DNA from: Eukaryota sp. GEM-RC1
Taxonomy: Eukaryota
DNA length: 64,000 nt
NCBI GenBank assembly: GCA_040285855.1
Contig: JAUFOQ010000003.1
Location: 2,356,001-2,420,000, forward strand
Reading direction: 5' to 3'
In this document: positions 5,083-57,869 of the stretch, one piece after another
Numbering within the stretch: the first letter of the stretch is position 1
How the letters are laid out: every line of letters begins with the position of its first letter
Position numbers and translations under genes: made by a program
The notes under the pieces: generated by a model
The model's input: only the letters and a program-made list of their open reading frames with translations
What the model was told of the DNA's origin: nothing
Database searches by the model: none

Positions 5083-6264
5083 TCACATCCTCTGCCCATT
5101 ACAGTAAAAATAGGCAGCGGCACCAGCGGCTACGGATTGATCAGGGTTTAGAGTTTTTCTTACTTTACCAGGAAACTTAAGTTCAAGCATTTCTTGAACC
5201 TTTCTTATACGAGAAGATCCTCCCACGAGTTGGACATAGTCAATAGTAGAAGATTGAAGACGGAGGTACTGAAGAAGTCTTTCGACTATAGACAAGCATT
5301 TGGCAACAAAAGGAGCACAAAGAGCATCAAATCGTTGTTTTGTCAACACGAATTCGAGATCCTCTCCAGAAGCAAAATTGTCAACATCGATATCAGCCGT
5401 TTCACAAGTTGCCATTAATTTCTTTGCCTCTTCAACTGCAAAACGCAGTGCTACTTTCTTCTTTGTGTTTGGCATGGAGTTGTTTTTAGCAGCCCAATAA
5501 TTCATAACATCTTCTACTATTGCTAGATTAATATTTGCCCCACCCAAGTTGGTAGAGCCATCAGTCCCTATTACGGTAACATCATCACTGTTAATATCTA
5601 CAATAGATACATCAAAAGTACCACCACCGAAATCAAACACGAGAACTCGCTTGCCCAGTGTTGAAGAATCTTCGTGTTTTAGAGATAGAGCAGCAGCAAT
5701 TGGTTCGCTGATAAGTCTGATTTCCTCAAAACCTGCTAGTTCAGCAGCACTCTTCGTTGCTTGACGCTGATGGTCATTGAAATAAGCAGGTACAGTGATG
5801 ACAGCCTTGGTGATGTTTTCCACCCCCAGTACTTTTTGGGCATTGTCTTTTATATAAGACAAGACTTTGGCACTGATTTCTTCGGGTCTGTATGTTTGGT
5901 CATTCACTTTAATTCCAGTGCATCCTGCAGGATATATCAGTTCTACGATATTGAAAGGGTATGTTTTCTTCATTTGTTGAACATCTTCATCATTAAAGCG
6001 ACTTCCAATGAAACGTTTGACTTCAAAGACAGTGTTTTCTGGATATTTTTTCATCGAAGCCAGAGCAGGGCTACCAACTACACATTTTGTTGGAGACCTG
6101 AAGGAAACGACCGATGGAACTAACAAGTTGTTTGATAAACAGTCGGGTAGAACTTCAGGGTTGTGCCATCCAAGACTGCCATCCGGGTTCCGTTTTTGGC
6201 GATAAACAGCAGCACAAGAGTTTGTTGTTCCAAGATCGATCCCAAGGACAATGGATGAAGACAT
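5083..6264 (-). CDS. Hsp70-family protein, nucleotide-binding domain only (393 aa)
   Basis: GIDLGTTNS, VITVPAYFND, DFGGGTFDVS, LVGGSSRI and NPDQSVAAGAA motifs; stop follows with no substrate-binding domain. Confidence 0.9.
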   Translation of the reverse strand: MSSSIVLGIDLGTTNSCAAVYRQKRNPDGSLGWHNPEVLPDCLSNNLLVPSVVSFRSPTKCVVGSPALASMKKYPENTVFEVKRFIGSRFNDEDVQQMKKTYPFNIVELIYPAGCTGIKVNDQTYRPEEISAKVLSYIKDNAQKVLGVENITKAVITVPAYFNDHQRQATKSAAELAGFEEIRLISEPIAAALSLKHEDSSTLGKRVLVFDFGGGTFDVSIVDINSDDVTVIGTDGSTNLGGANINLAIVEDVMNYWAAKNNSMPNTKKKVALRFAVEEAKKLMATCETADIDVDNFASGEDLEFVLTKQRFDALCAPFVAKCLSIVERLLQYLRLQSSTIDYVQLVGGSSRIRKVQEMLELKFPGKVRKTLNPDQSVAAGAAAYFYCNGQRM

Positions 6265-8067: not shown

Positions 8068-8909
8068 GAGTGTTACGAGAAACGTTTCTACGTTTCAGCG
8101 TTTCCACGTTTCCGAAACGTTTTCAATAAACATATCAGTATGGAAACGGCTTGGAAACGTAGAATACGTTTCGGAAACGTAAATTTTGGGTCTGGATTTA
8201 ACTTGTTTTTGTACCAAAGAAACTCATCAACTACTACAGATTGTGATACTGTGTGAGTGAGCACTGACGATAATACCCTTAAACTCAATTTCAAGCCACC
8301 AAGAAGGATATTGCCAATTTCGTCCTGTCGTTGAACTAAATCATCCGATACTTCTTCGTCTTCTTCAACTTCTATGACTAATGATAAATCCTAGAATTTT
8401 CTTTTCATTCGTCTACCGACTTTGACCATCTTTTTTAACGTGGTGTGAGCTGGATTGATTTATTCAATAACATTATTAATTTCTATAAAAATAACATGAC
8501 CACAATGTATCTTTAAAATTTGCAAAGTTGTAATACAACCGTATAACCTTGCACCATCAGGTGTAACAATGTTAAAGATCATTACATCCATCTAATACAA
8601 GGAAACATCCAGTTTGAAGAGGCCGTGCTCACAAGGTAATCAGTGGAGTCTTTTCGTCGGCCACTGGGAGAGAAAAGTGACGAATAGTCGTCGCTGTGTG
8701 CAATCTGAACGATTTCACCTTCATCAATGTCGTTGAGACATACTGCAAAACAGTGAGAGTGTTGATATTTTAGAAATTTTGGAAGAGAGAAATTGGATTT
8801 GGAAGAAATGAGAATTGTTCATATAAAAATGACGTTTTGGAAACGTGGAAACGTGGAAACGTTTCCGAAACGTTTCTAGACAAGTTTTGGTACGTTTCTC
8901 ATAACACTA
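8068..8909. mobile_element. hAT-type MITE
   Basis: TIR (T/G)AGTGTTAYGAGAAACG; 8-bp TSD GAATTGAA (8060-8067 / 8910-8917); subterminal GAAACG repeats. Confidence 0.85.
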
Positions 8910-8933
8910 GAATTGAAGAACTGTGCTTCTGCA

Positions 8934-11900
8934 ATGTCTGAATGTCAAAGTCCTAAAGATACACTCAGCGCCCTCATCCCTGCTTGCTCTCCTTACACAA
9001 AAGCCCCTCCCAGACCACGAATCACTGATAGGTCACCTTGTTTTTCCCCTACAAGACAATCCTCATCTCGCATATCTTCTTCTGTCACTGCTAAAGCACT
9101 CTTTGCGTCTCCTGAGGCTAAGAAAGTGTGCAAAAGACCTGATCCTGGCCCTCTCTCTCCTCAACGTCGGTTCTTCGACTCTATTTCTTTGCCTTCAATA
9201 CCACGACCAGAAACACCTGTCTCATCATCATCACAAGATTCAAAATCTGATGCCACATCACCAAGTGACACTGTCAAACTTGGTAAAAAACGTCGTTTGT
9301 TACTTTCTTGTCCTTCCTTTTCTTCCTTTGACACGTCGTCAACTTCCATTAGTAATGATCTATTACAGTTCACTACTGTTGAGTCTCTAGATTTTCATTG
9401 TATATTTCATGATAATTCTCTGTTTCAAATTCGTGAACTTGAAGGTACTGTCACCATCCAAGCTACTTCCTTCGAATCAGTCCTTCAAAGTGTTTGGAAC
9501 CATGACAGCTTTAAACCAGAACAAAAGGAAACTTTAGAAAGGATTCTCAATAGACAATCTTCAATGTTGTTTCTTCCAACTGGTCATGGTAAAACTCTTC
9601 CCTTACAATTCTTTGCTCTTTGTTCCAGACTTACAGGTCCTGTCATTGTAGTCTCACCATTACTAGCTCTCATCAATGACCAAGTAAAATCCCTTCCAAG
9701 TTGTCTCTTAGGATTAGGTGCTCATAATTACAAAGGAGTATCAGGAAGTGAGGCTTTTGTTAAGAGATTGGCTTTGTCTGATGTTATTTGGATATCACCT
9801 GAAAAGGCTGTTCTACCGTCTTTTAGGGAGGCTTTAATTAAAGCAACGGCATTGCGAAGATTACTTATTAAAGAATTGTGGAGTAATTTGTCAAAGTTTA
9901 TCGAGCAGAATTACCCACAAGAATTCCATCGTTTTTCTTCTTTTCCTGATGTTTCTACTTTGTCTCAACCTGCGTCTTTGTTAGTTATTGACGAAGTTCA
10001 TTGTTTTGGAACCTGGGGTAATAACTTTCGAAGTGATTTTTTAAAAATACCTGATTTTTGGAATTTTCTTGGGAATCCCACAGTCCTTGCACTTTCAGCT
10101 ACTTGTTCCTTTCAAACCAGATCAATTCTACAGTCAAAGTTCTCCATATCGTCCGATGCCATCTCCATGGCTGATAGAAAATCAAACCAAATTCTTTCAG
10201 TTTCTTGTGATAATCAGCAAGAATCAGCACTTCTTCGTCTCTTGACTTCCAAAAGACTTCAAGGGGAAAGTGATTGTCTTTGTGCCACGTCATGAGTTGG
10301 CTCTTGCCTTAAAGGAATCCATTTCTGGAAGTACTTCTCTCAGAGTTAAAGCATATCATTCTGGATTTAGTGGTACTGATAAAATTGCAGCTGAGAACAA
10401 GTTTAGAAATGGGCTTTTGGATGTGTTGGTGGCAACTTCTGCTTTTGGTATGGGTGTTGATATCCAGAATGTTGATCATGTTATACAATATTCAATTCCA
10501 AAATCAGTAGAAGATTTGTTACAGCAAATTGGTAGAGCTGGTCGTGGTGAAGGTCGAATCACATCACGTGCACACGTGTTTTTGAACCCAGATGACGTTA
10601 CCAGATCAGTTTCTTTGCTGTTTGATGATACATACTGTGAGGAGCAAATATTTGACCTCATCACGTGTTTGATTGAGGGAAATGAGAAATTTGATTGTAA
10701 ATGCATTTCTGATGTAGACTCTTTAAGTCTTTGTTCTGATTTGTCAATGGATGCCACCAATTCTGTTTTAACTTTAATGGAAAATTTAAATTTTCTTGAA
10801 TTTTTGGGTTTGGTCTGTGGTAAAATCAAGTTTCAGTTTAAAGATAATTATTACTCAGATTTGACTGAAATCGAGGCCAGTGTTGAAGATCCTTGGGGAC
10901 GTGCTTTAGTCAAACTACTGGACTCAAAAAAACGAAAGTCTCATAATAATTCCGATTTTTATTGTGATTTGAAGGACTTATACTTATCACTTAAGATTCC
11001 AATAGAATCTAAGAATGACGAAACAGAACCTAAGAATCCTGCTAAAAAGCACGAAAAAGCAGCTGAATTTGAGCCTTTCAAGGGATCTTTGGAAGATTTT
11101 CTTGAATTGATTGGGTATTTGGAGGAACGTAAAGTGATTTCAATCCATTCGAGGCCCAATTCTAAACTGTTTCGAGTAAATATGCCTACATTTGACGATT
11201 TGTCTGATGAACATAGCTTTAATGTTGAAGCTGAGAAAAGAAGATGGTCGAAAGCTATTGCATCGGAACTTCGAAGTTCCCGAGATTTGGACATTAAACG
11301 TTTTTGTCTACTTTATGAATATTTAAATTCCTTCAAATATCCTTCAATTGACCAGTTTGATGATTCTCTGTCCCGCAATTCCAATGAGCTACAATCTCTT
11401 TTTAATCGGTATTTTTCGTTGGAAGAACTACCAACATTAGACCAATGCCTATCAAAAATTGATTGCTTCTCCACTAGTGCAACTGAATTGACTCATCCAA
11501 TCAAAAACTTAATCAACTCCCATAAGAGTGATCTCAATATATCTGATTCAATCAATGCGACTGCTTCCCATTTACTTCCACCTGCCAAAGGAGCGATCTC
11601 TTTTGCAAAGATTCTACATGGTCGTCAAACTAGGCTGATTAATCCCCACTATTACAAGAACAACAGTTGCTCTCCTTGGGGAAAGTACTTTAGATACCGT
11701 TTCGATCAGATTGAAGCAACAGCTTTTAATCTTTTGACGGAGTTCGTCACATTGTCTGAACAAAAGAAACAAGAAGCTGCTAGACAAGTTAGAATTACAA
11801 GAAGTAAACATAATGAGAAAATTCAGAAGGAGAGCCAGAAACAATGTGGGAGATTTTCAAAAAGTAAAAGTAAAGAAAAATCAAAGATTCCTCAAGCAAA

Positions 11901-12021
11901 GGCCTTAAGTCAAGGTCAAAAGTCACGTGGTAAGAAGAATAACGAGGAACTAGATCCGAATGACCCTTTGCATTCCCCAGTTAACAATTTTTTTAAAAAA
12001 AGGAGATTATTGATTATTTAA
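8934..12021 (+). CDS. RECQL4: RecQ-family helicase, RECQL4-like (two ORFs joined by a frameshift near 10265)
   Basis: LPTGHGKT, SPLLALINDQ, DEVH, LSAT, ATSAFGMGVD and QQIGRAGR motifs; frameshift near GGGGAAA at ~10263. RecQ4 subfamily call is inferred. Confidence 0.85.
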
Positions 12022-12774: not shown

Positions 12775-13036
12775 TATAATGTGGCTGTGCATTTTTTCTT
12801 GTATTTTGCTATTTGCTCGATCTAATTCGTCTTGTGCGCATCAGTCACTATAAACAGCTGCAATGCAAAGAGTGGAAATTAATTTTGGAATAACATCTAG
12901 ATTGATCACCAATTGAAAAAACACAACAACTCTCATCACATCCAAACTAATTGCGGAAATAACACATTGAAATTGACCCCAGTATCACAACAGCAACACC
13001 ATTGGTTTTATTTTTCAAATCATATTATTTTAAATC
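12775..13036 (+). repeat. ~260-bp dispersed repeat, inverted copy at 18921-19176
   Basis: Long shared blocks such as CTCGATCTAATTCGTCTTGTGCGCATCAGT and CTATAAACAGCTGCAATGCAAAGAGTGGAAATTAATTTTGGAATAACAT. Confidence 0.9.
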
Positions 13037-18770: not shown

Positions 18771-18920
18771 TGAGATTGAGTCAGTTGAGATGTTGAAAAG
18801 AATTTTATCCAATAGTGAAACGAGCTACAACTTTTGCAAATTCATCAAGGAACTTCAAGGCCAATTTGCCTAATCTACCATATATGGAAATCGCAAATGG
18901 GACAAGTGAATATTCAACAT

Positions 18921-19176
18921 GAATTAAAATAATATGATGTGGATAATAAAACCAATGGTGTTGCTGTTGTGATACTGGGGTCAATTTTAATGTTATTTCC
19001 GCAATTAGTATGGATGTGATGAGAGTTGTTGTGTTTTTCCAATATAGTGATCAATGTTATTCCAAAATTAATTTCCACTCTTTGCATTGCAGCTGTTTAT
19101 AGTTACTGATGCGCACAAGACGAATTAGATCGAGTACATAGCAAAAATACAAGAATATATGCAAAGCCATATTGTA
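18921..19176 (-). repeat. Second copy of the 12775-13036 repeat, abutting the candidate omegaRNA
   Basis: Reverse complement aligns to 12775-13036; similarity stops abruptly at 19176. Confidence 0.9.
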
Positions 19177-19366
19177 GAAATTTTCGGTAGTCCTCAAACT
19201 GTGAAGTTCATTCCAAATGGATAATCCTCCCAAAGTAAATCCTGCTCCCACTTTGGTCATATCCATTTAGGCATCACAGACACGCTATGCTATGAGATGA
19301 TACGGTGAGATTGAGATAGCTTCATACACATAGCGCTGCCCGACCGTTTATGGTGGACTGATTTCT
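19177..19366 (-). ncRNA. Candidate Fanzor omegaRNA scaffold
   Basis: Directly 3' of the Fanzor stop. Nested stems CGCTATG/CATAGCG, CTGTGA/TCACAG, AAATGGATA/TATCCATTT, CCAAAGT/ACTTTGG, with closing AGTCC/GGACT. G-U extensions favour the minus strand. Confidence 0.65.
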
Positions 19367-22300
19367 TCAAGGGAGATCTTCTTCTTTTGACTGCCTTCGT
19401 TGGGGTTCCTCCTTTTCTTTTCTCGATCCAGTTTTAGGTGAACCCTGGTTTGACTCATCTAGCTGTGGACATGTTCGTATGTCGTGACCTGTTTGTCCAC
19501 ATTCTCCACACTCTCTTTCTTTACGAGTCTTTTTCACTGCAGTCTTTTTTCGATCTCTCTTCAAAGTAACATTACCACTCTCGAAATCAGTTGTTAAAGT
19601 TTTTGATCTCTCGAGAATAGATGGCCTAGCTTGACCTTTGATGGCGGCTTCGATAATGGAATAGATATTGATCGAAGAGTTGAGATCTCTATTCCAATAA
19701 GTCTTGCACCTTTTGCATTTCACCAGCCCCCATGGAGCTGACTTTGCTTTTACTTCTACGGACTTCTTTATCTTCTCCCACTCGTCTTCAAAGCTTCTCT
19801 TTTCGGTGGATCCTTACGGTTGTAGACCAGTACTTTTTCCTTGAGTTTCTTCTTCTTCCGTCTTATTTGACGCAGTCCTCTTGGGCCTAAAACTTTGATA
19901 GATGGATCATTTGTACATAATCCAAATAGTCCTTGAGCAGCACACTTTGAACAGGACTTGCTGGTACGGTATTCGTCAACTAGAAATACCTTATACCCGA
20001 ATTTTCTTAAAATTCTTCGGATTTCTGCTCCTCTAATAGCTGGAGTTTTACCTTTTCTTGTGTTTCCCTTAGAGCTCCAGTCCCCGTAACCAAGGACAAG
20101 GTCTTCTGGAGATCCATAGGTTAATTTAAACCTTTCCAACATATTCTTTTCACTCTGTTGATTGTTGGAATAAATTTGAAACTTCCTTTTCGTAAACCAA
20201 TCGTCTTCATAGAAATCACTCAGGTATACACAACTCCGTTCAGCTTCTTTGATGTAAGTCTCGAACTCATCACTGAAACAGGACCTTTGTTGTCCTCTAG
20301 AGACGGCAAGAGCAAATTCGTCGAGGATTTCTTGACCAGAAACAGTTCTACCATTAGAATTTTCGACTGTATAATCTTGGAGCGATCTTTCAGTTTCTGT
20401 TTTCGTAATTTCAAAGAAGGAAGTTTTTAGTTTTCTTCTTTCAGTCAACCGATATTTCTTGCTTTTTCGGTCATAAGATCTCTCCCCAGCACTGTACCTG
20501 AAGCTGGCCAAAAAGTGGTTTGGTTTCAGCCGTACTCGTTGAGATGGGGTTTGTCTCCATTGGTTCAATTGTTTTTTTCTTTTTTTAATACCACCTTTTT
20601 GTTTCAGTCTCATTTCTGAAGGTAGCCGTTTTTTCGTGGGATTGTTGTCCGAACAAGAAAATTCTTCAAATAATATCTCTTCATTTGTTTTTGGAGATAC
20701 GCAAAACATCAAGTCATATTCATTCGGGTCAATGCCAATTATTCTCTTTTCTGTCAGGTTCATTTTTTCAATGTCTTCCGAAGTTAAAGAGTCAATATAT
20801 CTTTCCGAAGCTGTTAGTGGTTTTGCGGTAAAGTCTTCAAAGGTGTTACCGTTTTCGTCCAGTAAATCTTTTCGAATCATAACCAAGGAACAGGAAATGC
20901 CATCTGTTACAATCGAAGAATACTTCAGACCAAATGATCGTGATGATGTAATAGCAGTTTCGGTAAGTACAGAGTCAAATACTTCCTTTCGAATAGCGTT
21001 AGCGGAACCTTTCAAATTTAAAACTCTTTGGTTTATCCAATCAGTATCTAATCTAATATGCTGTGGGACCAACGTCTTGGTCATTGGGAACGGATTATTA
21101 ACCTTTAAGGGTTTTCCATCAATTGAACAAAAAGACTGAATGGTTCTGTTGATATAAACAGCATGAGAAAGAAATTTTAGTGGCTTGGCTTTCTGAGCGT
21201 AGTAAAGATTCTTGCCTTTGGCAATGGTAGGGAACAAACAGAATTTCAAATAGGCAAAAAAGATTAAAGTCAATTCTGATTGCGGGAAGGGGGAAAATGA
21301 TATGATCATCAATTGGAATGTCTTCAAAGTTTCCATTAATAATCAGTTCTCTGATGGAATTTAATTTTGATTTCAATTCCTTCTTTAAGTGTTGCTCTTT
21401 AATTTGTTTAAGACGATAGTTCTTCAACGTAACAATGTTAAAGTAGCGAAAGACATAGTTGTGGAAGTATTTCGCCAAATTGTTAGCGTAATTGGTTTCA
21501 ATTTGTTTAGCCGTATAATGATAAATGCCTGACATAAACTCCAAATTCGGAAAAGAAATGTTGTTAGTTCCAATTTCATGAGACAGAGAGTCAAGAATTG
21601 GATAAAAATTATTACAGTAGTGTAATGCGATTTTTTGTTTCAAAGAATGATCAAATTTTTCATTTTGTAAAACTGCTTCTGCTTCTTTTTTTGACATTTT
21701 CAAATCGGACATACCGCAAGCCTTTTTTTTCTCTACATACATTCGTCGGAGAACGTGCCTTATTGATCCAAGAGCCAAAAAGGACTCAAATCTGGTAAGC
21801 GAACCGAAAAGTCTTTGTAATTATAGCAGATATTCCAATTCTCAGAAGACTCAGAATCATTTCCAATCATGGACAACGAAGGGTCATCGTGCAGTAACAT
21901 CAATTCTCTTTCTTTGACTATTGATTCAGCTTCGATTCTTCCAAAATCTTCAAATTCACGTAGAAGCAAATGCTTCAAGAAGGTGGTTCCTCTCACAGTT
22001 GCTTTTTGATTTCGTTTAGAACAAATTTTAATTAATTGAATGTTTTCATAATCTCTGAAAACCTTATCCAATCCTTTTTTTACGACTTTAATCGGAGGGC
22101 GGTCTAAAACAAGCTGCATTTCTTCATCAAAAAAATAATTCTTCAATTCGGACAACATCTTAATTTTGTTCAGCAAATCTTCAACCAGAGAGTTGCGTTT
22201 TCTATCATCCATCCATAACTTGAAAGTCTTAATATTTTGAGCAAGCAAAGTAAACTCCCTCTCCCGTTCAGGGCTAACCGTTGACATGTTTAGGATTTTT

Positions 22301-23142
22301 TTGAATTGGTTGAAGTAAGTTTTGAATTCAGTTGGTGATAGAATTAAATTTGGTATTGCCTTTTGAAACAATTTGGAACAAACATTTTCTAAACCTCTAC
22401 CACCTTTGAAAACATAAGTTGACTTTACAACATTTCCCATGTCAAGGGAAATAAATGGTCCAAATTCGCTTCGCTTACACCATCTATAGAACCAGATGGG
22501 AATAAAAGGCCTGAATGGCTCATCCACATTAAATGTGGTGGAGATGTTCCAAAGTTTACATCGTGCAATTAAAAACGGGAACAATAATTTTTCAGAGTTA
22601 TAACTTATAAGCAATCTAGGCTTTTTCTCGGACAGTAAAGATATAAGACCATTAATCATGACTTCTTCTGATGGAAAAGTAATTGTTTGAACACCATCAA
22701 AATCACTTGTTTCTTTGGTACTGATGACAACAGTAGAAACGAAATTGGTGTAAATAAATGTGAGGACAATAAGAATGATTTGATCATCCTCCGCATTTGG
22801 TACCAGCTCTGGCCTGGACACTTCAATTTCTTCACTGATTGTTGGAACTTCAGCAGCCTCTTGTTCTTCAGAAACAATTTCTGTTGAAGATTCTGTAGTA
22901 GTGCATTTCGGAAGAGATTTCTTCTTAACATTGAAAAGGAGTGGTGTAAGTCGTTCACTATCGGTAATGACCGTTTTAAAATCAATAAGGCAATACAGTG
23001 GGATGTCATCTACAGAAGACAGGTGAGACTTCTTAAGAGGCGGGGGAAATATAGTGTCACTATGGTTCTGAGAGGATAAACCACAAGGATAAAGTGTATA
23101 CTCCGGGCCGTGAACTACTTCGGAAAGACTGACAGGAGGCAT
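19367..23142 (-). CDS. Fanzor1-type RuvC nuclease fused to an N-terminal PolB-like 3'-5' exonuclease domain and a C-terminal CCHC knuckle (~1260 aa, 3 frameshifts)
   Basis: TDGISCSL, IIGIDPN (RuvC-I, ~20730), GYGDWS, LVDEYRTSKSCSKC (~19970), CKRC..WNRDLNSSINI (RuvC-III, ~19690), CGECGQTGHDIRTC. ORFs 21760-23187, 21119-21778, 19768-21336 and 19367-19723 join by 1-nt shifts. Confidence 0.85.
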
Positions 23143-27480: not shown

Positions 27481-27504
27481 TTTGAAGAGAAAATATAGAA
27501 TTTT

Positions 27505-29605
27505 GGTTTTTCCCCAAAAACCACCATAAAATTAACCAAATTTCTTTTCCACCATCACACTTTTTTTTCCACCATCATCTCTTTTACTTCAAACATCATA
27601 TCAGACACTATGCAAATCTCCGTAAGATCGTGCAAGTCCCAACATCCGGTTCGCTTCGTTGTTGGCGAGGTGTTCCCATCAAAAATTGCCTTGCAAGTAA
27701 AGATACATCAACATGCTTTACAAGAGGACAAAGAAATTAGTCTAGCCGCTAATAACAACACAAAAAAGTACACTGTAACGTGTACTGACTTCCAGTGTAG
27801 CTTTCGTCTTTATTCCTCCAGTAAAGATGGCATTAATTGGACAGTTGTCACTTATACTGCCCACAAGAAATTTTGCGCTGGTCAACCTAAAACAAGACTT
27901 CCCCCCAGCGTTATAGCTGAAATCCATACCGACGATTTTAGGAGACAAAAGATTTTGAGTCCTAGCAAGCTTGCCGAAAGCAGCTCAATGCCGTTATCTT
28001 GGAAAAAAGCAGATAGAGTGGTTAAGGCTGTACAATCGAATCTCTATGGTACTCGTGATGCGTCTTATGCAGTACTTCCCATGTATCTTGAAAATTTAAA
28101 GAAATCTATGCCAGGAAGCGTTACTGAATTGATAGCTGATAACTCCACATTTAAGATGTGTTTTGTTGCTCTTGCTGCTAGCATTGAGGGTTGGAACTTT
28201 TGTAAGAAGGTGATTTGTGTAGATGGAACATATATTCGTACACAATACCTTGGTGTTGTGTTGATTGCCACAGCATTAGATGGTAATCAACACACATTTC
28301 CGCTGGCCTATGCAGTTGTGGAAAACGAGACTATTGACTCGTGGTCTTGGTTTCTGACCCAGCTGGCATCCGTGTTACATTTAGAGGATTGTGAAGCTGT
28401 CACAATCATTTCTGATCGTCAAAAGGGGTTATTATCTGCCTTACGAAATGTGTTACCCTATTGTCATCACGCTTACTGTGTTTGGCATCTCGCCGAAAAT
28501 GCTACAGGAAAAGGATCTAAGCATGCTAAACCATTTATTTATCAACTTGCTCGGTCAACAACTATCGAAGAATACAACTGTTTATTTGAAGAACTAAATC
28601 AAGTTTCTCCATCCGCCGCTGACTACATCTCCAGAATTGAGCCGGAATTCTGGGTAGAATGCTTGTTTTCAGGTAACCGACACGGTATGATTACCTCAAA
28701 TCTAGTTGAGAGCATGAACGCGTGCATTGCTGAAGCCAGAGAGCTTCCGGTTACTCATATGTTGGAGGTTATAAGAGAAAAGATTGCAAAGTGGTTTCTC
28801 GCGAGAAGAGAAGAGGGGAAGAAAGCCGAAAATGGGGTTACTGTGGCTGTGGAAAAAAGTTGGTCTCTAGGATGAATGTTGTAATTGAAGAAGAGCTGTA
28901 TGCAACTAAGGTTGACGAAGGATTGTACGAGGTACGATACAAGGGCAAAATGATTAGAGTAAACGTAGGGGAAAGCTTTTGCGACAGCGACTGTCAATGT
29001 GGAAGATGGAAAAGGAAGGTATCCCTTGTGTCCACGCTCTTACTGTTCTTCGTAATTTCGGATCTCGGGGACAAAATTACTGTAGTCAAGAAAACTCCAC
29101 TGAAACCTTCCTGAAGGTCTACCAAGGGAAGGTATTTGGTGTAGATGATGTAAGGAAGAATCACTCTGTGAGACAGATAGAGCCTCCTGTGAACAAACCG
29201 CCTCCAGGACGTCCAGGAAAGGTAAGAGGAAGAAAAGGAGCAAAACCGACTGTTGCTTTCAAACGCTCTACTAATCAGTCAGCGAATGAAGAGTTCCGTG
29301 AAGAAAAAGAACAAAGAAGATGTAGTCTTTGTAGACAAGGTGGACACAACAAAGCAACATGTCCCCAACGTCGGCGTTAGCTCATTGACTGTAGTTGTAG
29401 TTGTAATATCGTATCATAAAGTGGTTTATTTCGTAGAAGATATAGGTAATACTAGTGAGAAGTGAACACAAGTAGGGCGAATATGGCAAGTTTCTTGATT
29501 AACGATTAGATTGAAGTCACGTCAGATGGTGGATTTGGGCGAAGAAAAAAATGATGGTGGAAAAAGAATTTATTGATTTCATATGGTGGATTAGGGCGAT
29601 GTCTC
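27505..29605 (+). mobile_element. Mutator (MULE) DNA transposon, apparently full length
   Basis: Perfect 9-bp TSD TAGAATTTT (27496-27504 / 29606-29614); degenerate TIRs rich in CCACCAT. Confidence 0.9.
27610..29380 (+). CDS. MuDR-type transposase with SWIM finger and CCHC knuckle (frameshifts near 28860 and 28990)
   Basis: VDGTY, LDGN..FPLAYAVVENE, IISDRQKGL, CVWH, TSNLVES; SWIM C.C..IPCVH; GRP; CSLCRQGGHNKATC. Confidence 0.9.
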
Positions 29606-30179: not shown

Positions 30180-31847
30180 TCACTGCCGCATTTGTAGCTT
30201 TCTTTTCAAAACCAATTGCTTCTGGTAACACTCATATGCTGTACCAAGAATAGAAGATCTGAACCAAACAAATATCAACAAAGTGGTTGGAATCCAAAAC
30301 ATTGGATGTAACAAAGGATTGAAATCCATTGGTCTTCCATCAAAAGGACCACACGTGTGTTCCATTGAAACAAAGACCAATAACAAAAGACCAACAAAAG
30401 AAAGCACCATGAGAAGAGAAAGGGAAAAGCTAAAGCGAGAGCGTTCCTTTCTATAATGATCTGTGGGTGGTCTCCAGAAGGTCTCTAGTAAGAATTTAAA
30501 TAACCTAAGAAACGCATAGACAATAAAGAAGGAAAGAATTGGATTAAATGGAGAAAAAGGAAGAGACAGAACAGTGAGAGCAAAGTAATAGATCAATCTG
30601 ACGGATAAATCATGGAAATCAAACTGTTTTCTCTTGTTGAATTTCTCCTCTTCAGACAAGTCCTTGTGTAATCCAAATAATTTAATAATTCCAGCTTTAA
30701 GAACTTCAACTCCAGTGAATATGGTACTATCTAAAACCAGTGTAATAATTAATAAATTGGTCAAATTTCTACTGGTAGCATTCAAGTTACAGTCGTCCTC
30801 ATCCTCTAAGTCGGAGGCAACATTGAAAATCAAAGGGGTCAAAAGAGAAGCTCTAAATACCAACATTAGAAGCAATCGAAGAGAATTTCTCTTATTTAAA
30901 TCAATCTCATTATACATTTTTAAAATAATCGACGCAATCATAGGAGAAAGAAGATTCAAAATGGCAACAGCAGAAGAAACAAGCAAGTTAATAGCCATTC
31001 CAAGAATAGACTCATCATCATCTGATTGATCTTCAATCAAAAATGATTGAACAGTGGCGAGACCACGAACACCAAAAGCACAAACCAAAGCAAATGAAAT
31101 GAACACAACATCAGCAGCATATCTGTATATTTTCAATTTTTTAGAAATTCCATATCGTTTTTCGTCTAATTTGACCAACCGCACACTCTCTTCTTGAATA
31201 GAAATATGGCAATTCTCCATCAATTCGATTGATTGATGAATCATTTGATCTTGTGCGTTGGCATTCCAATCAAAATCAAAAATCAACTCCATAAACTTTG
31301 GAGTAAGCACGGTATGACTATCTTCCAAAGCTTTTCTTCGATACATTAGTCTGCTAGCAAACACAGTGAAGAGACCAGCAAAGATGATAGTCATGCAGTA
31401 GCCCATGATGATGACATAAGACCAATGAGTCGCTCGTTCAGAGTAGATTGAAGAAGGTTGGAGGATGATAGGGTAGATGCCATCCATGGTTCCGAAGAGA
31501 GGGGAGTTGTCCTTGAGAAGATCTTGGATGTGGAAATAGAGGAGAAAGCCACAGTTGACACCAAGAAGGAAAATAGCACCTAGAATGGAGCGGCCAAGAC
31601 TAAAGAAGAAGCCGCAAGTACTTCCATATCGGCGTTCAATTTCTGGAATAGTTGTCTTTAGAGGAATGAAACACCAAGACAAAAAGGTTGTGAACCACTC
31701 TATCGCAGAGGTAATTGAAAGAGGTGATAAATCGGTATCATAAGAGTCTTCAATGTCCCTAGGGACAGACACGACAGATTCACTATCTGAAGGAGATTCA
31801 GACATTTTCTCAAAATAAAAGAATCCGGCTTTCAAGTCAAACTCCAT
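30180..31847 (-). CDS. Transmembrane channel-like (TMC) protein
   Basis: Many hydrophobic segments; IERRYGSTCGFFF resembles the TMC IEG.FGS.V.SYF motif; QFDF..LIY and CGPF near the C-terminus. Confidence 0.65.
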   Translation of the reverse strand: MEFDLKAGFFYFEKMSESPSDSESVVSVPRDIEDSYDTDLSPLSITSAIEWFTTFLSWCFIPLKTTIPEIERRYGSTCGFFFSLGRSILGAIFLLGVNCGFLLYFHIQDLLKDNSPLFGTMDGIYPIILQPSSIYSERATHWSYVIIMGYCMTIIFAGLFTVFASRLMYRRKALEDSHTVLTPKFMELIFDFDWNANAQDQMIHQSIELMENCHISIQEESVRLVKLDEKRYGISKKLKIYRYAADVVFISFALVCAFGVRGLATVQSFLIEDQSDDDESILGMAINLLVSSAVAILNLLSPMIASIILKMYNEIDLNKRNSLRLLLMLVFRASLLTPLIFNVASDLEDEDDCNLNATSRNLTNLLIITLVLDSTIFTGVEVLKAGIIKLFGLHKDLSEEEKFNKRKQFDFHDLSVRLIYYFALTVLSLPFSPFNPILSFFIVYAFLRLFKFLLETFWRPPTDHYRKERSRFSFSLSLLMVLSFVGLLLLVFVSMEHTCGPFDGRPMDFNPLLHPMFWIPTTLLIFVWFRSSILGTAYECYQKQLVLKRKLQMRQ

Positions 31848-31858
31848 CCATAAATACC

Positions 31859-34800
31859 ATGCTCTTTAAACTATCACCGTCACATCCCACCAAAAGTGGA
31901 GCAATCTGCAAGTGGAGATGTGACAGTAACATGCTGGCCGTTTCTCTTCCTGGTTCTGTTGCTCTTTGTGATCGTCAAGGGTCTTTTATCTCTTCTATTT
32001 CCACATCCAAGGACACGGCTTCAATTGACTGGGAATGTCATGGTGACTTTCTCTCAGTTGTTGTCCCAAATCAACCAAATGTTATCATTTATGAAACCTC
32101 AACATCTACTCACCTTACTGTACAAACAACAAGACCTATTACGTGTGCTTCTTGGTCCCCCAATTCTTCCCTACTCATCATGGGAACTGATAAGGGTACT
32201 TTTCTTCAATACAATACACAAACAAAGAGACTTAACAAGACCATTGGAACCCATCAAAAGCGCATCTCTTCTTTATCCTGGTCATCTTCCAACTTACTTC
32301 TTGCTTCGTCAGACGATAAAACTGTCTCTGTCACCAAACTTCCCTCCTTTGAGACCAACAGAGACAATGTCGTTCTTCCCTCCCCCTGTACTCAACTCTC
32401 TAGCCTCTCCTACAAGCACAAAGGCCAGATAGTACACCTTGGAGCAGCTCTGTGTAAAGGTGACGTCTATTCTCTTTGATTTGAGTTCGAGTTCTACTGT
32501 TAAAAAGTTGGTTATAGAGGATCTCAGAATTTCTACAATGTTGTTTCTACCTGATCTATTTGCTGTATTTGGAAGTAGTGATGGCCATGTTACTGTAGTT
32601 AAACTAAAACATTCAAACGAGCCTCACGATATGCAACTAGAACATGTTTTACGTCATCATTTACTTCGAACAACTCCAGTACTTTGTTTGGATTACTCCC
32701 TAACCCTCTGTAAGTTAAATGACGGTGTTTTGAGTGACCAAATGGGTCAAATAGCTATAGTTTATGAAGAGACAGTAGAGATCATGTCGACTAATGATTG
32801 GTCTGTGATGCCACCCAATCACATTCAGCTTGTTGAAAGTGAGGGTAGCTTCATAAACGCTACTTGGGCTAAGAATGGTGGAATTCTGACTGTTGCTACT
32901 GTATCAGGTTACGTTTATGGAGAAGTCACGAGAGTTCCCGCTCTAGTGTCGTCATGTGATTCTCTTGTTGCTTGTATGTCGTCACTATCAGCAGTAACTG
33001 TTCTGGATTGCCTCCTGCCACCAGACTTACCCCCAGGGTCACCCCCCGTTACCGTTCTAACTGCTTCTCTTCCTCAAGAACCCGCTCAAATTAGGATAGG
33101 TTTAGGTTCAACTTTGTGTGCTTTTATTAATTCAATGGCCTGGTTTTTAAAAGGACCGTTGATTAATGAGCTACCTGCAAATGAAACAGGAAAGATGGAG
33201 GTTGTGTATAATCGAGAGTACATGACAGTCATTAATGACGTCATGCTCACTACTGATTACGTGGCAGTTACTCTTGGAAATCGAGTTTTGTTACATTCTT
33301 TTGAAGATGATGGATTTGAACAGTGGTTTCCGGTCAATCAATCACAATCAATCACTCAAACTCGACTTTCCAGTGAGTTTTTGGTTTACTCAACTGAAAA
33401 AGGAATACATGTTTTTTCCTTGGTGTTTCGTCAAATGGTTTCAGAAGTACAGCTGCCGTCTCCAGTTATTAACTTCTTTCCTAATCCACAACACTCAAGG
33501 TTTGTCGTGATTGATGGTGACGATCAAGGCTATTTTGTCAATCCAATCACGTCATCAGTCAAGGATATTCCTGATTTTCCTTCTGGATCGACTGCTCTTT
33601 TGACATTTCCGATCCCTCTTTTTTCTCTTTAATTGATTCCTCATTTGTTGCCCACTCCTATGTTTATCTGCAATACTCAGTGGATGGTGAAAAGATTCAT
33701 AAAGTCAAAGATCATACACAGCTTTCTGCCGCCTCAATCCCGCTTACATTAATTAATGGGGAGATTTTCTCCTTTATTCCCTCTTTTGGGCTGTCTTCTC
33801 AGACTCTTTCTTCCCATTCTGCTATTGTTGCTTCTCTTGGTCGACAATCTCAGGGTTTCCTACAACTATTGGAGCTAGGTAGACTTCGAGAAGCTTGGAA
33901 TGTTGCTCTACAATTGCAGGAGCGAAAGTACTATAAGTTGTTACAGGATCGAGCTACCTATTTGCTGGACTTGTCGATTGCTGAGCTGGCATCACGTCAT
34001 CTGGGAGATGCTGCCACGTGTCTAGCTATTAGGTCAGTAGTAGGCACTGAAGATTTCAATGATTTAGCCGCTTTTTCAGCTATTCTCATGTCTGACGTGA
34101 ATAAAGCAATCAAATTGATTGAAAAGGCAAGTAATCGTGATGAACCCCTTCAATTGGCAATTGACCTTCATCAATGGGAACGAGCTCTACAGTTGGCAAG
34201 TTATTCAGATCCAAACAAGATTCCAATTATTTGTTTAAATTTTGCTGTTGAATTAGAATTACAGGAGAAATTTGAAAGAGCTATAACCTACTTTAAAAAA
34301 AGCTCTTGAAGGTTCTGAAATACTTCAAAAAAATCAGATTCAAATGTGTGAAAGTGGAATTATTAAGTGTGAATTAAGAAAAGGAAATGTTGAAGCTGCT
34401 GAAATAGCTTTGAAGTCTTCATCTAAACAATTAGCTAAGGAATGTGCGATAATTCTGAAAGAAATGAAACAATTTAATTTCGCAGCTAAATTATTTAAAA
34501 GAGCTTCTGATTTTGAAGCTGCTGTTCAGTTGTATTTGGAAGTCAATGAAATTCAAGAAGCTGCCAAATTGATTGATGCGGTACACAGTCAAAAGTTATT
34601 GATTGATTTCGGTCACAAAGCAGAGCAATTTGGATTATTTGAAAAATCTGCATCTGCATATCTGCGTGCGGAATCTACTTCTGATTATGTTAGAATTCTT
34701 TTATCTGACCTTGAAGAACCAGAAAAGGCTTTTAAAATTATTCGTAAAACTGCTGATCCTACTGCTGCTGCAATTGCCTGTGAATTCTGTCGAAAAAATG

Positions 34801-35867
34801 ACAATATTGTTACTTTAATTGAAATGTTGTTTATTTGTGGTGAAGCTGATGAAGCTTGTGAACTTGCTTTAACTCATGGTCATGGTCATTTGGCTGCTGA
34901 TTATTATAAGACTCATGGTCATTATCACCGTGCTCTCAAGCTCTATCTTCAATCAAATGCCATTGATGACGCGATCGATGTCGTGGCATCCAGTAATAAT
35001 GACCTTTTGATTAGAACCATCTTTGACTTTTTAATGGGAGACTCTGATGGAAAACCAAAGGATGTCCACCATTTGTTCACTCTTTATGTTAAACTTGGTC
35101 ACTTTAACGAAGCTGCCAAGACTGCTGTGATCATTGCTGGACAAGAAATTGAATCTGGTCATTATTTAGAGGCTAGGAACACATTATTTAAAACTTTAAG
35201 AAAAGTTAAAGGTTTATCTGCTGGCTTTAGACTACCCAACAAACTGCTGTCTATGTTAAAGGTCTTACACTCCTACATTGTTGTTAGAATGTTAGTTAAA
35301 AGAGGGTTACACGAGGAGGCTGTGATTCTACTCGTATCTGTGGTTGAAAGTGATGTGTTCATCCAACATCGTATTTCTATGTTAATTTCTTGTGTAATTG
35401 AATGTCAGAAAGCTGGTCTGAGGGAAAGTGGCTTTAATTATGCGAGTCGATTGATGCAATCAGATTATGTTGATCACGTACCCAGTCAGTATAGGTCAAA
35501 AATAGAAAAGATCATTCGAAAACGTGATAAATCCCAAAAATCGGGAATTCTAGATCGAACTTCCCCTTGTCCTTTCTGTGGTTCAGAAATATCTATTACT
35601 TCATCTTCTTGTTCAAATTGTCGATCTCTGATCCCATTTTGTATAGTTACTGGTCAGAAAGTTGTTAGAAATGATTTAACTTGCTGTCCACACTGTGAGT
35701 TTCCAGCAATTTATTCTCAGCTTGTCGAACATGTTTCTCACTTTCAGTCTTGTCCAATGTGTTTAGAAGAACTAAGTACTGAGACTTTGGAAATTATAGA
35801 TAACGCAGAGGAGTATTTAAATGATTTAACTGATTGGTTTACAGGTTCTACACAGAAGAGTTCTTGA
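31859..35867 (+). CDS. WDR19: Intraflagellar transport protein IFT144/WDR19 (four ORFs, frameshifts near 32470, 33600 and 34300)
   Basis: N-terminal WD40 repeats (GTHQKRI), TPR-like solenoid, FLMGDSDGKPKD, LHSY, IECQKAGLR and C-terminal CPFC..C..C..IPFCIVTG..CP.C.FPA..CPMC. Confidence 0.9.
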
Positions 35868-36056
35868 TGGGATGCTGATTTATAAAATTGTAACTTTATA
35901 CATGTACTTTACTTTCTAATCTGTTTTTATACAATGACGGTTGTTTTGATACGAAATGAACAGACAGATCAGCTTCAGAATGTCTTCTAATCATTCTTGA
36001 TAAGTGTTACTAGTAGATGTAGATGTCCGAAATAGTTCATCCTCTCTACAGTCTCA

Positions 36057-36762
36057 ATGGTTCCCGTCTCAAGCAAGATCCTCTTTGCTGCAATAACAGG
36101 GCTCAATGAACTGGTATTTCGACATGTCATTGTCCACATTGGTGTCCCCGTTTTCTTGTTTCTCTTGACAATCTTTTCGCTGTATTCTGACTCAATAGCG
36201 TTGAGACGTATAAATTCTTTGTGCCATGCTGTGCTACATCTCTCTGGTGCTGCTATGTACTACACCGTTCCTCATTTCTCCGTATGTCATCATTGTCATT
36301 TGATCATAGTCAAGTCATCCGGTGTGGTTAACTATTCTTTCAGGACCTGTTATTGTTGGTATTTTGTTTATCCTTGAATCCATCAGATTTTCTCCCAAAC
36401 TTTGCTATAGAGTTCATCGATCTTTAAGACGTAGAACCCTTGGTCTAGTTATTGCTTTATGGTCACTTGTCTCTTTCAGTGTTACTGGTCCTTTCCTGTC
36501 TCGATCTTTGAACAAGCTAACACCCTTTGGATGGCCATCATGTGCATCATTGTTTTCCATTGGTGTTGTTTTAACTGCTAATCATAAAGGAACAAATGGG
36601 TCTTCTATTTTGATGGTTCTGTGTGTTTTTGGCATGATCATGGGAATTTATTCAACAATGTTTTTACACCATTTTGTGGATTTTGTTTTGATTTTGGCTT
36701 CTTTGAGTGGATTAATTGTGATGTTTCATGATTCCACTTCTAGTAAGAATAAATCAGATTAG
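36057..36762 (+). CDS. Multi-pass membrane protein of unknown function, one 28-nt intron (36282-36309)
   Basis: Removing GTATGT...CATAG joins ORFs 36057 and 36322 in frame (..PHFS|SSHPVWLT..). Confidence 0.65.
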
Positions 36763-43441: not shown

Positions 43442-46223
43442 CTACATTAGAAGTAAGTGCATTCCCATAATATCTTCAAGAGAGAGATTTCCTGGTCGAA
43501 CATCCAAACCAACAGGTTTTTCAGTTTCACCGCGAAGTCCTGTGCTGGTGTATGTAGTAACTTCCATTATTCCTTCTTCAGTTATGGAATACTGTACAGA
43601 AATTGTAATAGAACCAGCAGGTGCAGGAGACAAAGGACCAACAGTCAAATCGCAAAGTACTTCCCCCAACCCTTCAGTAAGAGCTTGTTGTTCGACTTTT
43701 GCAAAAATATCGACAGAGCTACCCCCAGCTACTGCAATGGCACTGTTCAAATTCACAGCTTGTTTGGCAAGTGCAACAGAATCAATATCATCAACTCTAT
43801 TCTGGGTTAACCAGTAGAGATAGTTCAATTGATCTTTGAGGCTGGGATTTTGATTAGAACACCACTCATAAATCGTGGCTGGTTTGTTTTGACACGTTCG
43901 ATATCGTTCATGATTATACAACAGATTAATACAACACTTGAGTGTGGCCTTTGCCCAAGTTCGAACATCTGCATTAACCAACGTTTCATCTTGATCATTG
44001 GAAGACATCAATGCTAAATTCCAGTGTTTAAAGACTTTGATTAAATCGTCCAAAGTAACTGTACCAGCAGCATCAACAATAAATTTTCGGGTGTTTTCAT
44101 CAATTGTGGTACTCCCTTTCGGATCATCGACAATGAGATAGTTCTCAGCAAACATACTGACAGAAGATCGTTGAGTATTCCAAGGAAGTAATCTAGGCTT
44201 AAGGGGGATAAACTTGTCAGGAAGAACAACTACAGTTCGAGGTGTATAAACTCTGTCGAATATGTGATCAAGCTGATTATTAATTTCACTGTCACTATGA
44301 GCTTGGAACAATGGTGGTACCAACAAAGAGCCTTCCTCACCACGAAGAGCACTGCGGAATGTGAAACACACATGTGTGGGAAAATCAGAACCAATACCGA
44401 GAGTAGTGACTTCGAACTTGGCATTGATCGTTTTGAGTTTATCGTAGACTAACTGTGTTTGTCGAGAGAATTGGTTTTTAAAATCATCATTGATCACATC
44501 CATACCATCAGAGACGAGTAATACTCGATATATAATGGTGTGATTCATACCAGAATTTGATGCATAATCATCATGAATAAAATCTGCAGTTTAGTTTAAG
44601 GCTTTAATGATATCAGCTCTGCCTGACGAAGATGAATTTCGCAGATCTGATAAGGATTTGGTTGTAGAAACTAAATGGTTGAACAGTACAGCACCAGAAA
44701 ATGTTGAATTGTCACCTAAAGAGGAAAGCTTCGAATATAATCGTTCAGTCAAAGTAGAAAAATGGCCTCTCATCGAAGAAGAACGATCAATAACTAGAAC
44801 GTAACGGTATTTTACCTTCATACACAACTGTGTAAGGGCAACATCAGAAACACGAACAATCATTTTAGGTTTTTCAGGAAGATGAGTACATTGGATTACA
44901 CTTACAACAGCATTTTGTTGTCCATCAATGGTGGTCTTAAAAGTCTTGCGGATAGAACATTCTTTTAAGGGAGTACCTTTTTCTAGGACCATTTCCAGAC
45001 CATCATGTACAGGTGTCACAATTGATGATCCAAGAACGTCATGAAGAATGATGTCTGTACCTGATTTGCTAGCCAAAATGGCTGCTCCCAAAGCAACAGC
45101 TTCATCACAGTTAGGTCTTTTTAGTAGATCAACGCCAGGGAAAACAGACGATAAGCGCTCAGCGATACCAGGTAGTAGAGTAGAGCCACCAACAAGAAGA
45201 ATGTTGTCAACGCTTTGTGGAGAGATTCTATTCAACTCAAGAAATTGATTCAAGTTTTGGAAAACCCTGTCGGAGAAAGGAGCACATATAGTTCGAAGCT
45301 CTTGTTGAGTTAAAGTAAGTTGAGAATTGAGAAACGAGAAGGAATGTTGAGGGACTTGTGATAAGTAGCATTTAGCTTCTTCCACTACTTGTCTCAGACA
45401 TTCAAGGTCGGATTTCTCCAACCCATGTCCGACACGAGTCTTGAAATAGTCAACGAGAAGTCTGTCAACAACAGAGCCACCCAATGTACGATCACCTCCT
45501 GTATGAATGACCTGAACTTCACGTGAAGTAAGATGGGCAAGGCATAAATCAAACGTCCCTCCTCCTAAGGTGAGTATTCTACAAAAACATACCTAAATCA
45601 AAAATGAGGACCCTTTTTCCTACCAATGATGGGTGATAATACAGAAACGCAACTGCTGCGGCCGTTGGTTCACACACGAGTCTTGGGTTTTCAAATCCTG
45701 CAATGATGGCCGCATCTTTGGTAGCCTTGCGTTGTCTCTCGTCAAATTCATAAGGAATGGTGATATACACAGACGGAAATGACTGTTGTCCGGTGGCTTT
45801 AGCAGCCACAGATTGGAGCTTCTGCAATATAACAGCTGATATGAATTCAGGAGTGTAGTGAGTGTTTTCGCCATCCTTGTCTATCATAATGGAAAGTCTA
45901 TTCTGAGCGTCTAAATCGATTTCATATGGAAGATCTCTTAATTCACGGGCAAGGTTGTTGTCTTCCATCAGATTCCTTCTTAGATCGGATGGGTTGGACG
46001 AGATGTCTAGATGACGGCCAATAACGCGTTTAACCTGTGTAACAACATTTTTAGGGTACTTTCTTGCATCTCTCAAAGCTGGCTTGCCACATTTGGGTTT
46101 GGAAGAGTGGAAACTTACGACAGACGGAACAACCTTATTTGACCTGTCGCAAACGATTATTAGCCCATTATCATCACAAATAGCGACCAATGAGTTGGTT
46201 GTTCCGAGATCGATTCCGATCAT
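43442..46223 (-). CDS. Hsp70-like protein with a vWA domain inserted in the SBD; 28-nt intron 45565-45592; in-frame TAA at 44591-44593 (possible pseudogene)
   Basis: GIDLGTTNS, EPTAAA, FDLG|GGTFD after splicing, LVGGST, DEAVALGAA; vWA VIDRSSSM, LVSDG, LGIG; SBD tail LSPAPAG..ISVQYSITEEGIMEV. Confidence 0.8.
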
Positions 46224-56000: not shown

Positions 56001-56100
56001 GGTCTGAGTAGTCGTCTTCATCAAAATCTTCATCGGCGAAGAGGTCTCTGGTAGGGCGGAGAGACATGGCAGCGGCGGCATTCACTAGGCGGCGGCTGGA
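50090..56100 (-). mobile_element. Decayed Ty3/Gypsy chromovirus-like retrotransposon (gag-PR-RT-RH-IN-chromodomain); no LTRs found
   Basis: PR GLIDTE (~54670), RT LDLPRAF and YLDD (~53705), RNase H TDAS, integrase H..H..CPSC, HVD and NGVAER, chromodomain LVQWVG..TWEP; multiple stops and frameshifts. Confidence 0.9.
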
Positions 56101-57862: not shown

Positions 57863-57869
57863 GTCATAA

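Follow-up and report, generated by a model that had tools for sequence, protein, structure and literature searches.

The Fanzor1 RNA-guided nucleases SpuFz1, GtFz1 and PpFz1 (PDB 8gkh, 9cer and 9cf0) have a WED/REC/RuvC/TNB domain order, a TDG motif, a RuvC-I motif of DP type and a glutamate six residues before the zinc finger, and Fanzor1 proteins reach about 800 amino acids (aa) (PMC10711439). A 64,000-nucleotide (nt) stretch of DNA from Eukaryota sp. GEM-RC1 (assembly GCA_040285855.1, contig JAUFOQ010000003.1, positions 2,356,001 to 2,420,000; hereafter the window) encodes a protein with all of these sequence features which, unlike the known Fanzor1 proteins, carries near its N terminus the 3'-5' exonuclease domain of a family-B DNA polymerase (PolB). 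The fused proteins are about 1260 to 1490 aa long and differ further from Fanzor1: those of GEM-RC1 carry a C-terminal CCHC zinc knuckle, and those of a second species, TZLM3-RCL, are preceded by a 2A motif. Spu-1 elements resemble the fusion in being multi-copy without an adjacent transposase; no terminal repeats were found at the window locus.

The modelled fold of the exonuclease is that of the PolB proofreading domains (Pol delta, Pol epsilon, archaeal B3, RB69 and T4 gp43, and viral enzymes; Z 16-18 over about 190 residues), and their ExoI, ExoII and ExoIII motifs are likewise intact in the sister family of TZLM3-RCL. The fusion differs from family-B polymerases in having no polymerase domain, in a long insertion after ExoI and, in the window's subfamily, in the loss of three acidic residues. 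Tethering of an RNA-guided endonuclease to a 3'-5' exonuclease is familiar from Cas9TX (Cas9-TREX2) and from exonuclease fusions of Cas12a and Cas12f; those are man-made, whereas the Fanzor fusion is natural and PolB-derived, its combined activity being predicted. Other mobile elements and immune systems have also taken on a 3'-5' exonuclease of DnaQ fold as a helper: Dada transposases and Juno/Vesta and Terminon retroelements among the former (PMC3627910, PMC3706591, PMC5408684, PMC6431247, PMC6338049), and the Cas2-DEDDh trimmer-integrase among the latter. These DEDD accessories are fused to a transposase or integrase or are free-standing, and are of RNase D or DEDDh type; in the available parts of those sources none is fused to TnpB, Fanzor or Cas12.

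The exonuclease-Fanzor1 fusion is apparently an undescribed Fanzor1 variant; the original prediction, too, knew of no description. No natural exonuclease-Fanzor or exonuclease-TnpB fusion was found in a full-text literature search, judged by titles and the beginnings of abstracts, with subscription papers and Repbase outside its scope. The word "exonuclease" is absent from the main text, as available, of PMC10711439, PMC10530073, PMC10432273, PMC10691335, PMC3627910, PMC13565253 and PMC11423790, and the available part of the preprint bioRxiv 10.64898/2026.06.03.729735 makes no mention of such a fusion. The supplements of three Fanzor/TnpB papers contain neither the word nor any of five exonuclease motifs in a meaningful place, exact short motifs being a weak probe and one file of PMC10432273 being unreadable.

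The fusion is real. Four overlapping minus-strand open reading frames (ORFs; ORF1 to ORF4 at 23223-21760, 21820-21119, 21342-19768 and 19813-19367) make up the gene, and ORF1 passes uninterrupted from the exonuclease domain into the start of Fanzor1. There, at about residue 351 and still within ORF1, the first WED strand and REC helix begin, so that the domain junction is visible in the window without correction of any frameshift; the original prediction had begun the Fanzor part later, with the C-terminal 850 residues or so. Counting the window, the junction lies inside a single unbroken ORF in four of the seven GEM-RC1 N-terminal proteins. If the three breaks between the frames are single bases, the gene runs from the ATG at 23142 for 1258 codons plus a stop, in keeping with the single protein of about 1260 aa that had been proposed, and the 3.8 kb contain no stop codon created by a base change. 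The protein KAL0248266.1 (P0010, 1182 aa), from another GEM-RC1 copy, runs from the window's start codon through RuvC-II with 1139 matches, 39 mismatches and no codon gaps; in addition there are four 1-nt differences, namely the three breaks in the window and one of P0010's own.

The Fanzor1 identity of the body, and the presence of all three RuvC acidic residues, were recognized from the outset and agree with structure matches, motifs and fold. The only PDB matches of ORF3 at E<=1 are the three Fanzor1 structures (E 4e-14 to 2e-11), and ORF4 holds the second CxxC and the RuvC-III RD. The RuvC D-E-D triad is present with its glutamate six residues ahead of the first CxxC, an arrangement that defines Fanzor1 (PMC13565253, PMC10711439). 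The RuvC-I signature is DPN, as in SpuFz1 (among 103 other relatives, DPN occurs in 49, DPG in 53 and DVG in one), and the TDG motif of the WED domain is common to 100 of the 103. The Fanzor1 motif D-X(125,275)-[TS][TS]-XX-C4 finger-X(5,50)-RD (PMC3627910) is present in P0010 with a spacing of 254; in the sister family the spacing is 281, slightly above the stated range. The P0010 model, confident at about residues 480-1075, has the bilobed Fz1 fold, and all seven Foldseek matches at E<=0.001, ranks 1 to 7, are Fz1 structures (E 4e-15 to 1e-11). The C-terminal knuckle is common to other GEM-RC1 and TZLM1-RC Fanzor records and is absent from the TZLM3-RCL family.

At the N terminus, where a PolB proofreading domain of DnaQ-like fold had been predicted, ORF1 matches Pfam DNA_pol_B_exo1 (PF03104) at E=1.6e-9 (37.9 bits; curated cut-off 23). 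An AlphaFold2 model of the domain (24-row alignment; mean pLDDT 62, core 70-87) matches family-B proofreading domains along its whole length (best Foldseek E=3e-8); its alignment held 12 polymerase rows, which favours a PolB fold, and the Pfam match is independent of the model. Against human Pol delta the model gives Z=18.0 (root-mean-square deviation 3.9, 189 residues aligned), with yeast Pol delta, African swine fever virus, Pol epsilon, herpes simplex virus 1 and RB69 polymerases within 2 Z units, and its matches in BFVD are giant-virus and herpesvirus polymerases. The donor would have been of family-B DNA polymerase type, with no narrower lineage suggested by fold searches, Atlas or tree. 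The polymerase domain (palm, fingers and thumb; PF00136) has no match in P0010, P0020, P0179 or P0184, and the Fanzor part starts directly after ExoIII.

In the window's exonuclease an insertion of about 55 residues, modelled at low confidence, follows ExoI. The ExoI Asp is retained (22983), while the ExoI Glu, the ExoII Asp (22584) and the ExoIII Tyr/Asp (22167) are replaced, so that three of the four acidic residues are lost. Model residue 10 aligns with the ExoI Asp of the matched polymerases if the first strand is ungapped, which confirms the D-F-K register of the original prediction; an alternative register, D-S-E seven residues further on, is preferred by MAFFT and was rejected, the structural alignments starting in register with the earlier Asp. 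ExoI reads D-F-K in all seven GEM-RC1 proteins that cover the site, the ExoII Asp is gone in seven of seven and ExoIII in five of five. Because the residues are replaced in every GEM-RC1 protein covering these sites, the exonuclease is predicted to be catalytically dead throughout the window's subfamily, the fold being present in an inactive member. The original prediction had already read DFK for DIE and noted the absence of the ExoII Asp, without listing the loss of ExoIII (Y-x3-D); its verdict of a dead domain fits the window's subfamily and does not extend to the family as a whole, whose other branch keeps D-x-E, N-x3-F-D and Y-x3-D.

Table 1. Features of the exonuclease-Fanzor1 locus (positions in the window)
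Feature	Position	Strand	Remarks
Exonuclease-Fanzor1 fusion gene	19367..23142	(-)	about 1258 aa if three 1-nt breaks are read through
PolB 3'-5' exonuclease (DEDDy) domain	22102..23010	(-)	Pfam, AlphaFold2 model, fold searches, alignments
Fanzor1 body	19620..22092	(-)	lower end approximate; sequence and fold matches
Fanzor1 features	22092 to 19974		first WED strand 22092, REC helices, TDG 20907, RuvC-I D 20730, RuvC-II E 19974
Fanzor1 features, continued	19953 to 19687		CxxC 19953 and 19717, RuvC-III D 19687
C-terminal CCHC zinc knuckle	19469..19510	(-)	sequence
Break 1	21777..21781	(-)	T5 run; 2 of the 3 other records covering it read through
Break 2	21256..21293	(-)	C5 run 21289-21293 or T6 run 21256-21261; read through in 4 of 5 others
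Break 3	19800..19803	(-)	A4 run; 2 of the 5 other records covering it read through
3' trailer, candidate guide-RNA scaffold	19177..19366	(-)	two hairpins, 19345-19270 and 19275-19205

The sister family emerged from an exhaustive search with ORF3, which gave 1223 relatives at E<=0.001, the best 150 of which were examined. The third-best, P0020 (1473 aa, TZLM3-RCL), has both Pfam domains, and its family comprises ten TZLM3-RCL records in two clusters, of which eight cross the junction and six are unbroken with all motifs from ExoI to RuvC-III. All four acidic residues are kept in each of the eight records covering each motif. In Atlas all ten neighbours of this exonuclease are PF03104 clusters (score 0.95). 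P0010 and the sister family are 30% identical over the exonuclease and 29% over the Fanzor part. Labels such as GEM-RC1, an unclassified eukaryote in the taxonomy, presumably denote free-living anaerobic metamonads.

A further peculiarity of the TZLM3-RCL proteins is a StopGo/2A octapeptide, D(V/I)ExNPGP (motif definition: PMC12846837), found in seven of the eight records that reach it (P0020, P0168, P0179 and P0183-P0186), the eighth having a change of one residue. It follows a short hydrophobic leader and stands upstream of a Ser/Pro-rich spacer and the fusion. The motif is absent from the three frames of the 958 nt upstream of the window's ATG, and no mention of 2A together with Fanzor was found in the literature searched.

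Phylogenetic analysis suggests that the two fused families have a common origin. In the Fanzor trees (FastTree, 119 of 124 rows, five short rows having been dropped; IQ-TREE, 37 of 124 rows) the GEM-RC1 and TZLM3-RCL Fanzors are set apart together by a long branch (support 100/100), beyond which the first split separates the two fused families; these trees were midpoint-rooted only, and the grouping carries no one-clade test. Four fused exonucleases group with 100/99 support among 17 rows, a set that draws a long-branch warning and was assembled without eukaryotic or giant-virus polymerases. The simplest reading is a single capture before the families split, after which catalysis would have been lost on the window's side. 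Since the sister family keeps all catalytic residues and both families group together, the exonuclease was most likely active when it was captured, and its catalysis would have been lost afterwards in the window's lineage.

The fusion is, as far as the sequences compared indicate, rare among Fanzor1 relatives. When 206 proteins were searched with a profile of the fused domains and two archaeal polymerases, none of the other Fanzor relatives matched (best E 0.15), and the length preceding the conserved REC Tyr has a median of 134 residues and a maximum of 232 in 102 other rows, against 542-811 in eight full fused proteins. No relative was found in scans of viral and metagenome contigs with ORF3 and P0010, and an Atlas search with the whole of P0184 gave no usable match. 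Scans with an exonuclease profile found 16 viral and seven archaeal loci; the 16 viral loci have no Fanzor match, the archaeal ones not having been scanned for Fanzor. None of 5126 longer candidate proteins scored against ORF1, in a word-based search so weak that it missed even the sister family. Further Fanzor1 families of the same clade, or similar, occur in GEM-RC1 (P0018, P0019, P0021, P0024, P0026, P0028, P0053, P0190) and TZLM1-RC (P0022, P0025, P0029); one of these clusters has 26 members, and their N-termini were not recovered by the N-terminal profile search.

Within GEM-RC1 the gene is multi-copy, and the search for further copies of the fusion that the original prediction called for finds them both there and in TZLM3-RCL. 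By exact look-up ORF1 and ORF3 belong to a single cluster at 90% with 13 proteins, among them 11 other GEM-RC1 records; a profile of six N-terminal pieces had one match among 6177 candidates, a twelfth GEM-RC1 record. These records likely stand for about a dozen copies, because their locus tags are far apart, and the copies are 92-98% identical where in frame. The three predicted single-nucleotide breaks could all be placed at homopolymer runs, although at break 2 one copy differs at the T6 run and not at the C5 run. Among the copies there are nine distinct break sites, of which seven are no more than 2 nt away from a run of at least four identical bases (background 19%, P=2e-4) and five fall inside such a run (background 10.5%, P=1e-3). 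Introns were rejected as the cause, P0010 being colinear without codon gaps, although break 3 has five candidate GTAAGG donors; programmed frameshifting was rejected because the places of the breaks differ between copies.

A control with host genes was needed because real slippage too favours runs. The host IFT144/WDR19 gene (31763-35867, plus strand) is split into four colinear ORFs, that is, by three breaks in 4.1 kb, with runs at two of the three junctions and a frame-restoring intron with a canonical donor at none, unlike a nearby HSP70-like gene with a true 28-nt intron and canonical donor; a DEAD-type helicase gene (8880-12021, plus strand) is frameshifted once. As a host gene is broken as often as the Fanzor gene, the breaks of the fusion gene are likely assembly errors. 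The alternative, that the window copy is a true pseudogene whose frameshifts are real, with the fusion protein made only by other copies or species, draws on the same preference of slippage for runs, on the recurrence of some breaks (break 3 in three of the five other records covering it) and on the fact that none of 14 GEM-RC1 proteins of the window's subfamily spans from the start to RuvC-III. It is unlikely in view of the absence of base-change stops, the broken host genes and the concentration of break sites at runs, and it bears on the window copy alone, not on the fusion. The split genes of the GEM-RC1 assembly call for caution in reading it.

As to function, we lean, by a little, towards the view that in its intact, ancestral form the tethered exonuclease trims ends, the dead domain of the window's lineage being kept as a structural or binding cap. 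The fusion gene would sit in a non-autonomous DNA transposon, and the Fanzor would cut empty donor sites, directed by a guide RNA that the 3' end of the element encodes. The non-target strand is cut after base 16-17 by SpuFz1 and after 14-17 by GtFz1 (PMC10432273), and WED/REC clamps the TAM (target-adjacent motif) duplex (PMC11423790). The exonuclease is attached just ahead of the first WED strand. Once RuvC has cut the displaced strand at a distance of 14-17 bases from the TAM, there would remain on the TAM-side piece an unpaired, single-stranded tail with a 3'-OH, the partner strand presumably being held by the guide. Proofreading exonucleases remove unpaired 3' tails, and a single-stranded 3' tail is the preferred substrate of PolB exonucleases. 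The tethered domain may therefore remove this tail and so block re-ligation; under the restorative-homing model for OMEGA systems (PMC13565253), the tail would also be the stretch unmatched to the element-bearing template, and its removal would have to precede the synthesis that copies the element back.

This role is proposed because of the cut geometry and of two precedents: the family-B DNA polymerase of T4 has a 3'-5' exonuclease that influences how efficiently the td intron homes (PMC2988022), and Cas9-TREX2 prevents perfect repair and repeated cutting (PMC8904484). In a fuller version, held more tentatively and as somewhat short of probable, the clade would be a natural RNA-guided exo-endonuclease, StopGo in TZLM3-RCL releasing a polypeptide that cuts and then resects the 3' end, steering repair toward homing, and the window's lineage would be the same machine minus the trimming. 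There the domain would now be only a structural or single-strand-binding cap, with trimming left to host nucleases. The original prediction had suggested that the captured fold may serve to bind nucleic acid or DNA ends.

Several observations weigh against the end-trimming role. The window's subfamily reached about a dozen copies with a dead exonuclease, so that trimming is evidently dispensable, and about 100 other Fanzor1 relatives have no such exonuclease domain. The exonuclease varies little less than the rest of the protein when sister copies are compared (0.059 versus 0.065-0.085). The P0010 model does not fix the position of the exonuclease, and its residues 276-466 have pLDDT <50. Neither a guide RNA nor the element's ends were identified at the locus by folding, Rfam or repeat searches.

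Among other views of its function, the exonuclease may be a mere passenger: a piece of polymerase would have been captured in frame once and tolerated without use to the nuclease, the window copy being further decayed. That the subfamily multiplied regardless of its lost residues, that its branch is the longer (1.33 versus 0.86 changes per column) and that other Fanzor1 proteins manage without the domain would all fit; it is nonetheless improbable, given that the sister family retains every catalytic residue at about 70% amino-acid divergence, that the dead domain is still modelled as a whole DEDDy fold and that among five GEM-RC1 proteins the exonuclease varies less than the N-terminal tail (0.031 versus 0.096).

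Still more doubtful is a role in transposition, in which a transposase acting in trans, possibly of MULE (Mutator-like element) type, would create 3' ends at the element or the donor site for the exonuclease to process. Dada transposases do carry an intact DEDDy domain proposed for 3'-end processing (PMC3706591), and DEDDh accessory genes occur in P and piggyBac elements (PMC3627910); but the transposon DEDDy domains known are RNase D-like rather than PolB-like (PMC5408684), and the domain here is fused to the Fanzor and not to a transposase. The locus itself offers no transposase between the flanking host genes (the original prediction had also seen none adjacent), the nearest being a MULE at 27499-29380, past three host-type genes. 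Terminal inverted or direct repeats between the flanking genes did not exceed those of shuffled sequence (46 and 119 of 200 shuffles as good). The Fanzor CCHC knuckle resembles the tail of this MULE transposase (within 28958-29380, plus strand; tblastx E=0.009), a possible hint at MULE as the partner transposase family. Least probable is trimming by the exonuclease of the 3' end of the element's guide RNA to a working length of about 15 nt, for although Fanzor guide RNAs end 14-15 nt past the element (PMC13565253) and so must presumably be trimmed, and several DEDDy enzymes trim RNA 3' ends (PMC5408684), every sequence, Atlas or fold match falls on the proofreading domain of a DNA polymerase. 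Such domains act on DNA.

The fusion gene sits between a RalGAP host gene (start near 18800, minus strand) and a C2HC5-finger gene (24064, plus strand), in gene-dense eukaryotic DNA with RalGAP, IFT144 and HSP70 genes and MULE and long terminal repeat (LTR) elements. The folding score of its 3' trailer (z=-3.7) holds for a hand-picked stretch of 71 nt only, and at least one of 130 sliding windows scores better than the trailer; Rfam has no match in the trailer. Two small nucleolar RNA matches of Rfam below threshold were taken as chance. A dispersed repeat of 256 bp (18921-19176 and 12775-13036, 90% identical, in opposite orientation) abuts the trailer at 19176 and may be either a small element of separate origin or a relative of the Fanzor element's end that lacks the gene. 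Next to it, a short minus-strand frame (18808-18920) without a Pfam match resembles the C-terminal tail of restriction-like-endonuclease non-LTR retrotransposons. Farther off, the HSP70-like gene with the 28-nt intron (43442-46280, minus strand) is continued by a weak match to VWA and by a further ORF of 368 aa that has no Pfam match, and a second HSP70-like gene (5083-6264) is C-terminally truncated. LTR-retrotransposon remains (integrase, RNase H) lie at 50051-56085 (minus strand), 35891-36759 and 57867-58728, the last two forming a direct repeat of 869 bp with 94% identity, 22 kb apart.

The fusion bears on what Fanzors do for their elements in eukaryotes and on how the breaks they make are repaired. 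The catalytically intact sister family is its most interesting member, and with it nature supplies a sister pair, one with an intact and one with a dead tethered exonuclease, in which an end-trimming role is directly testable with unbroken sequences. The 2A motif would bring translational recoding to Fanzors. If the domain is active, the fusion would be nature's version of the Cas9-TREX2 design and possibly a new single-protein editor architecture.

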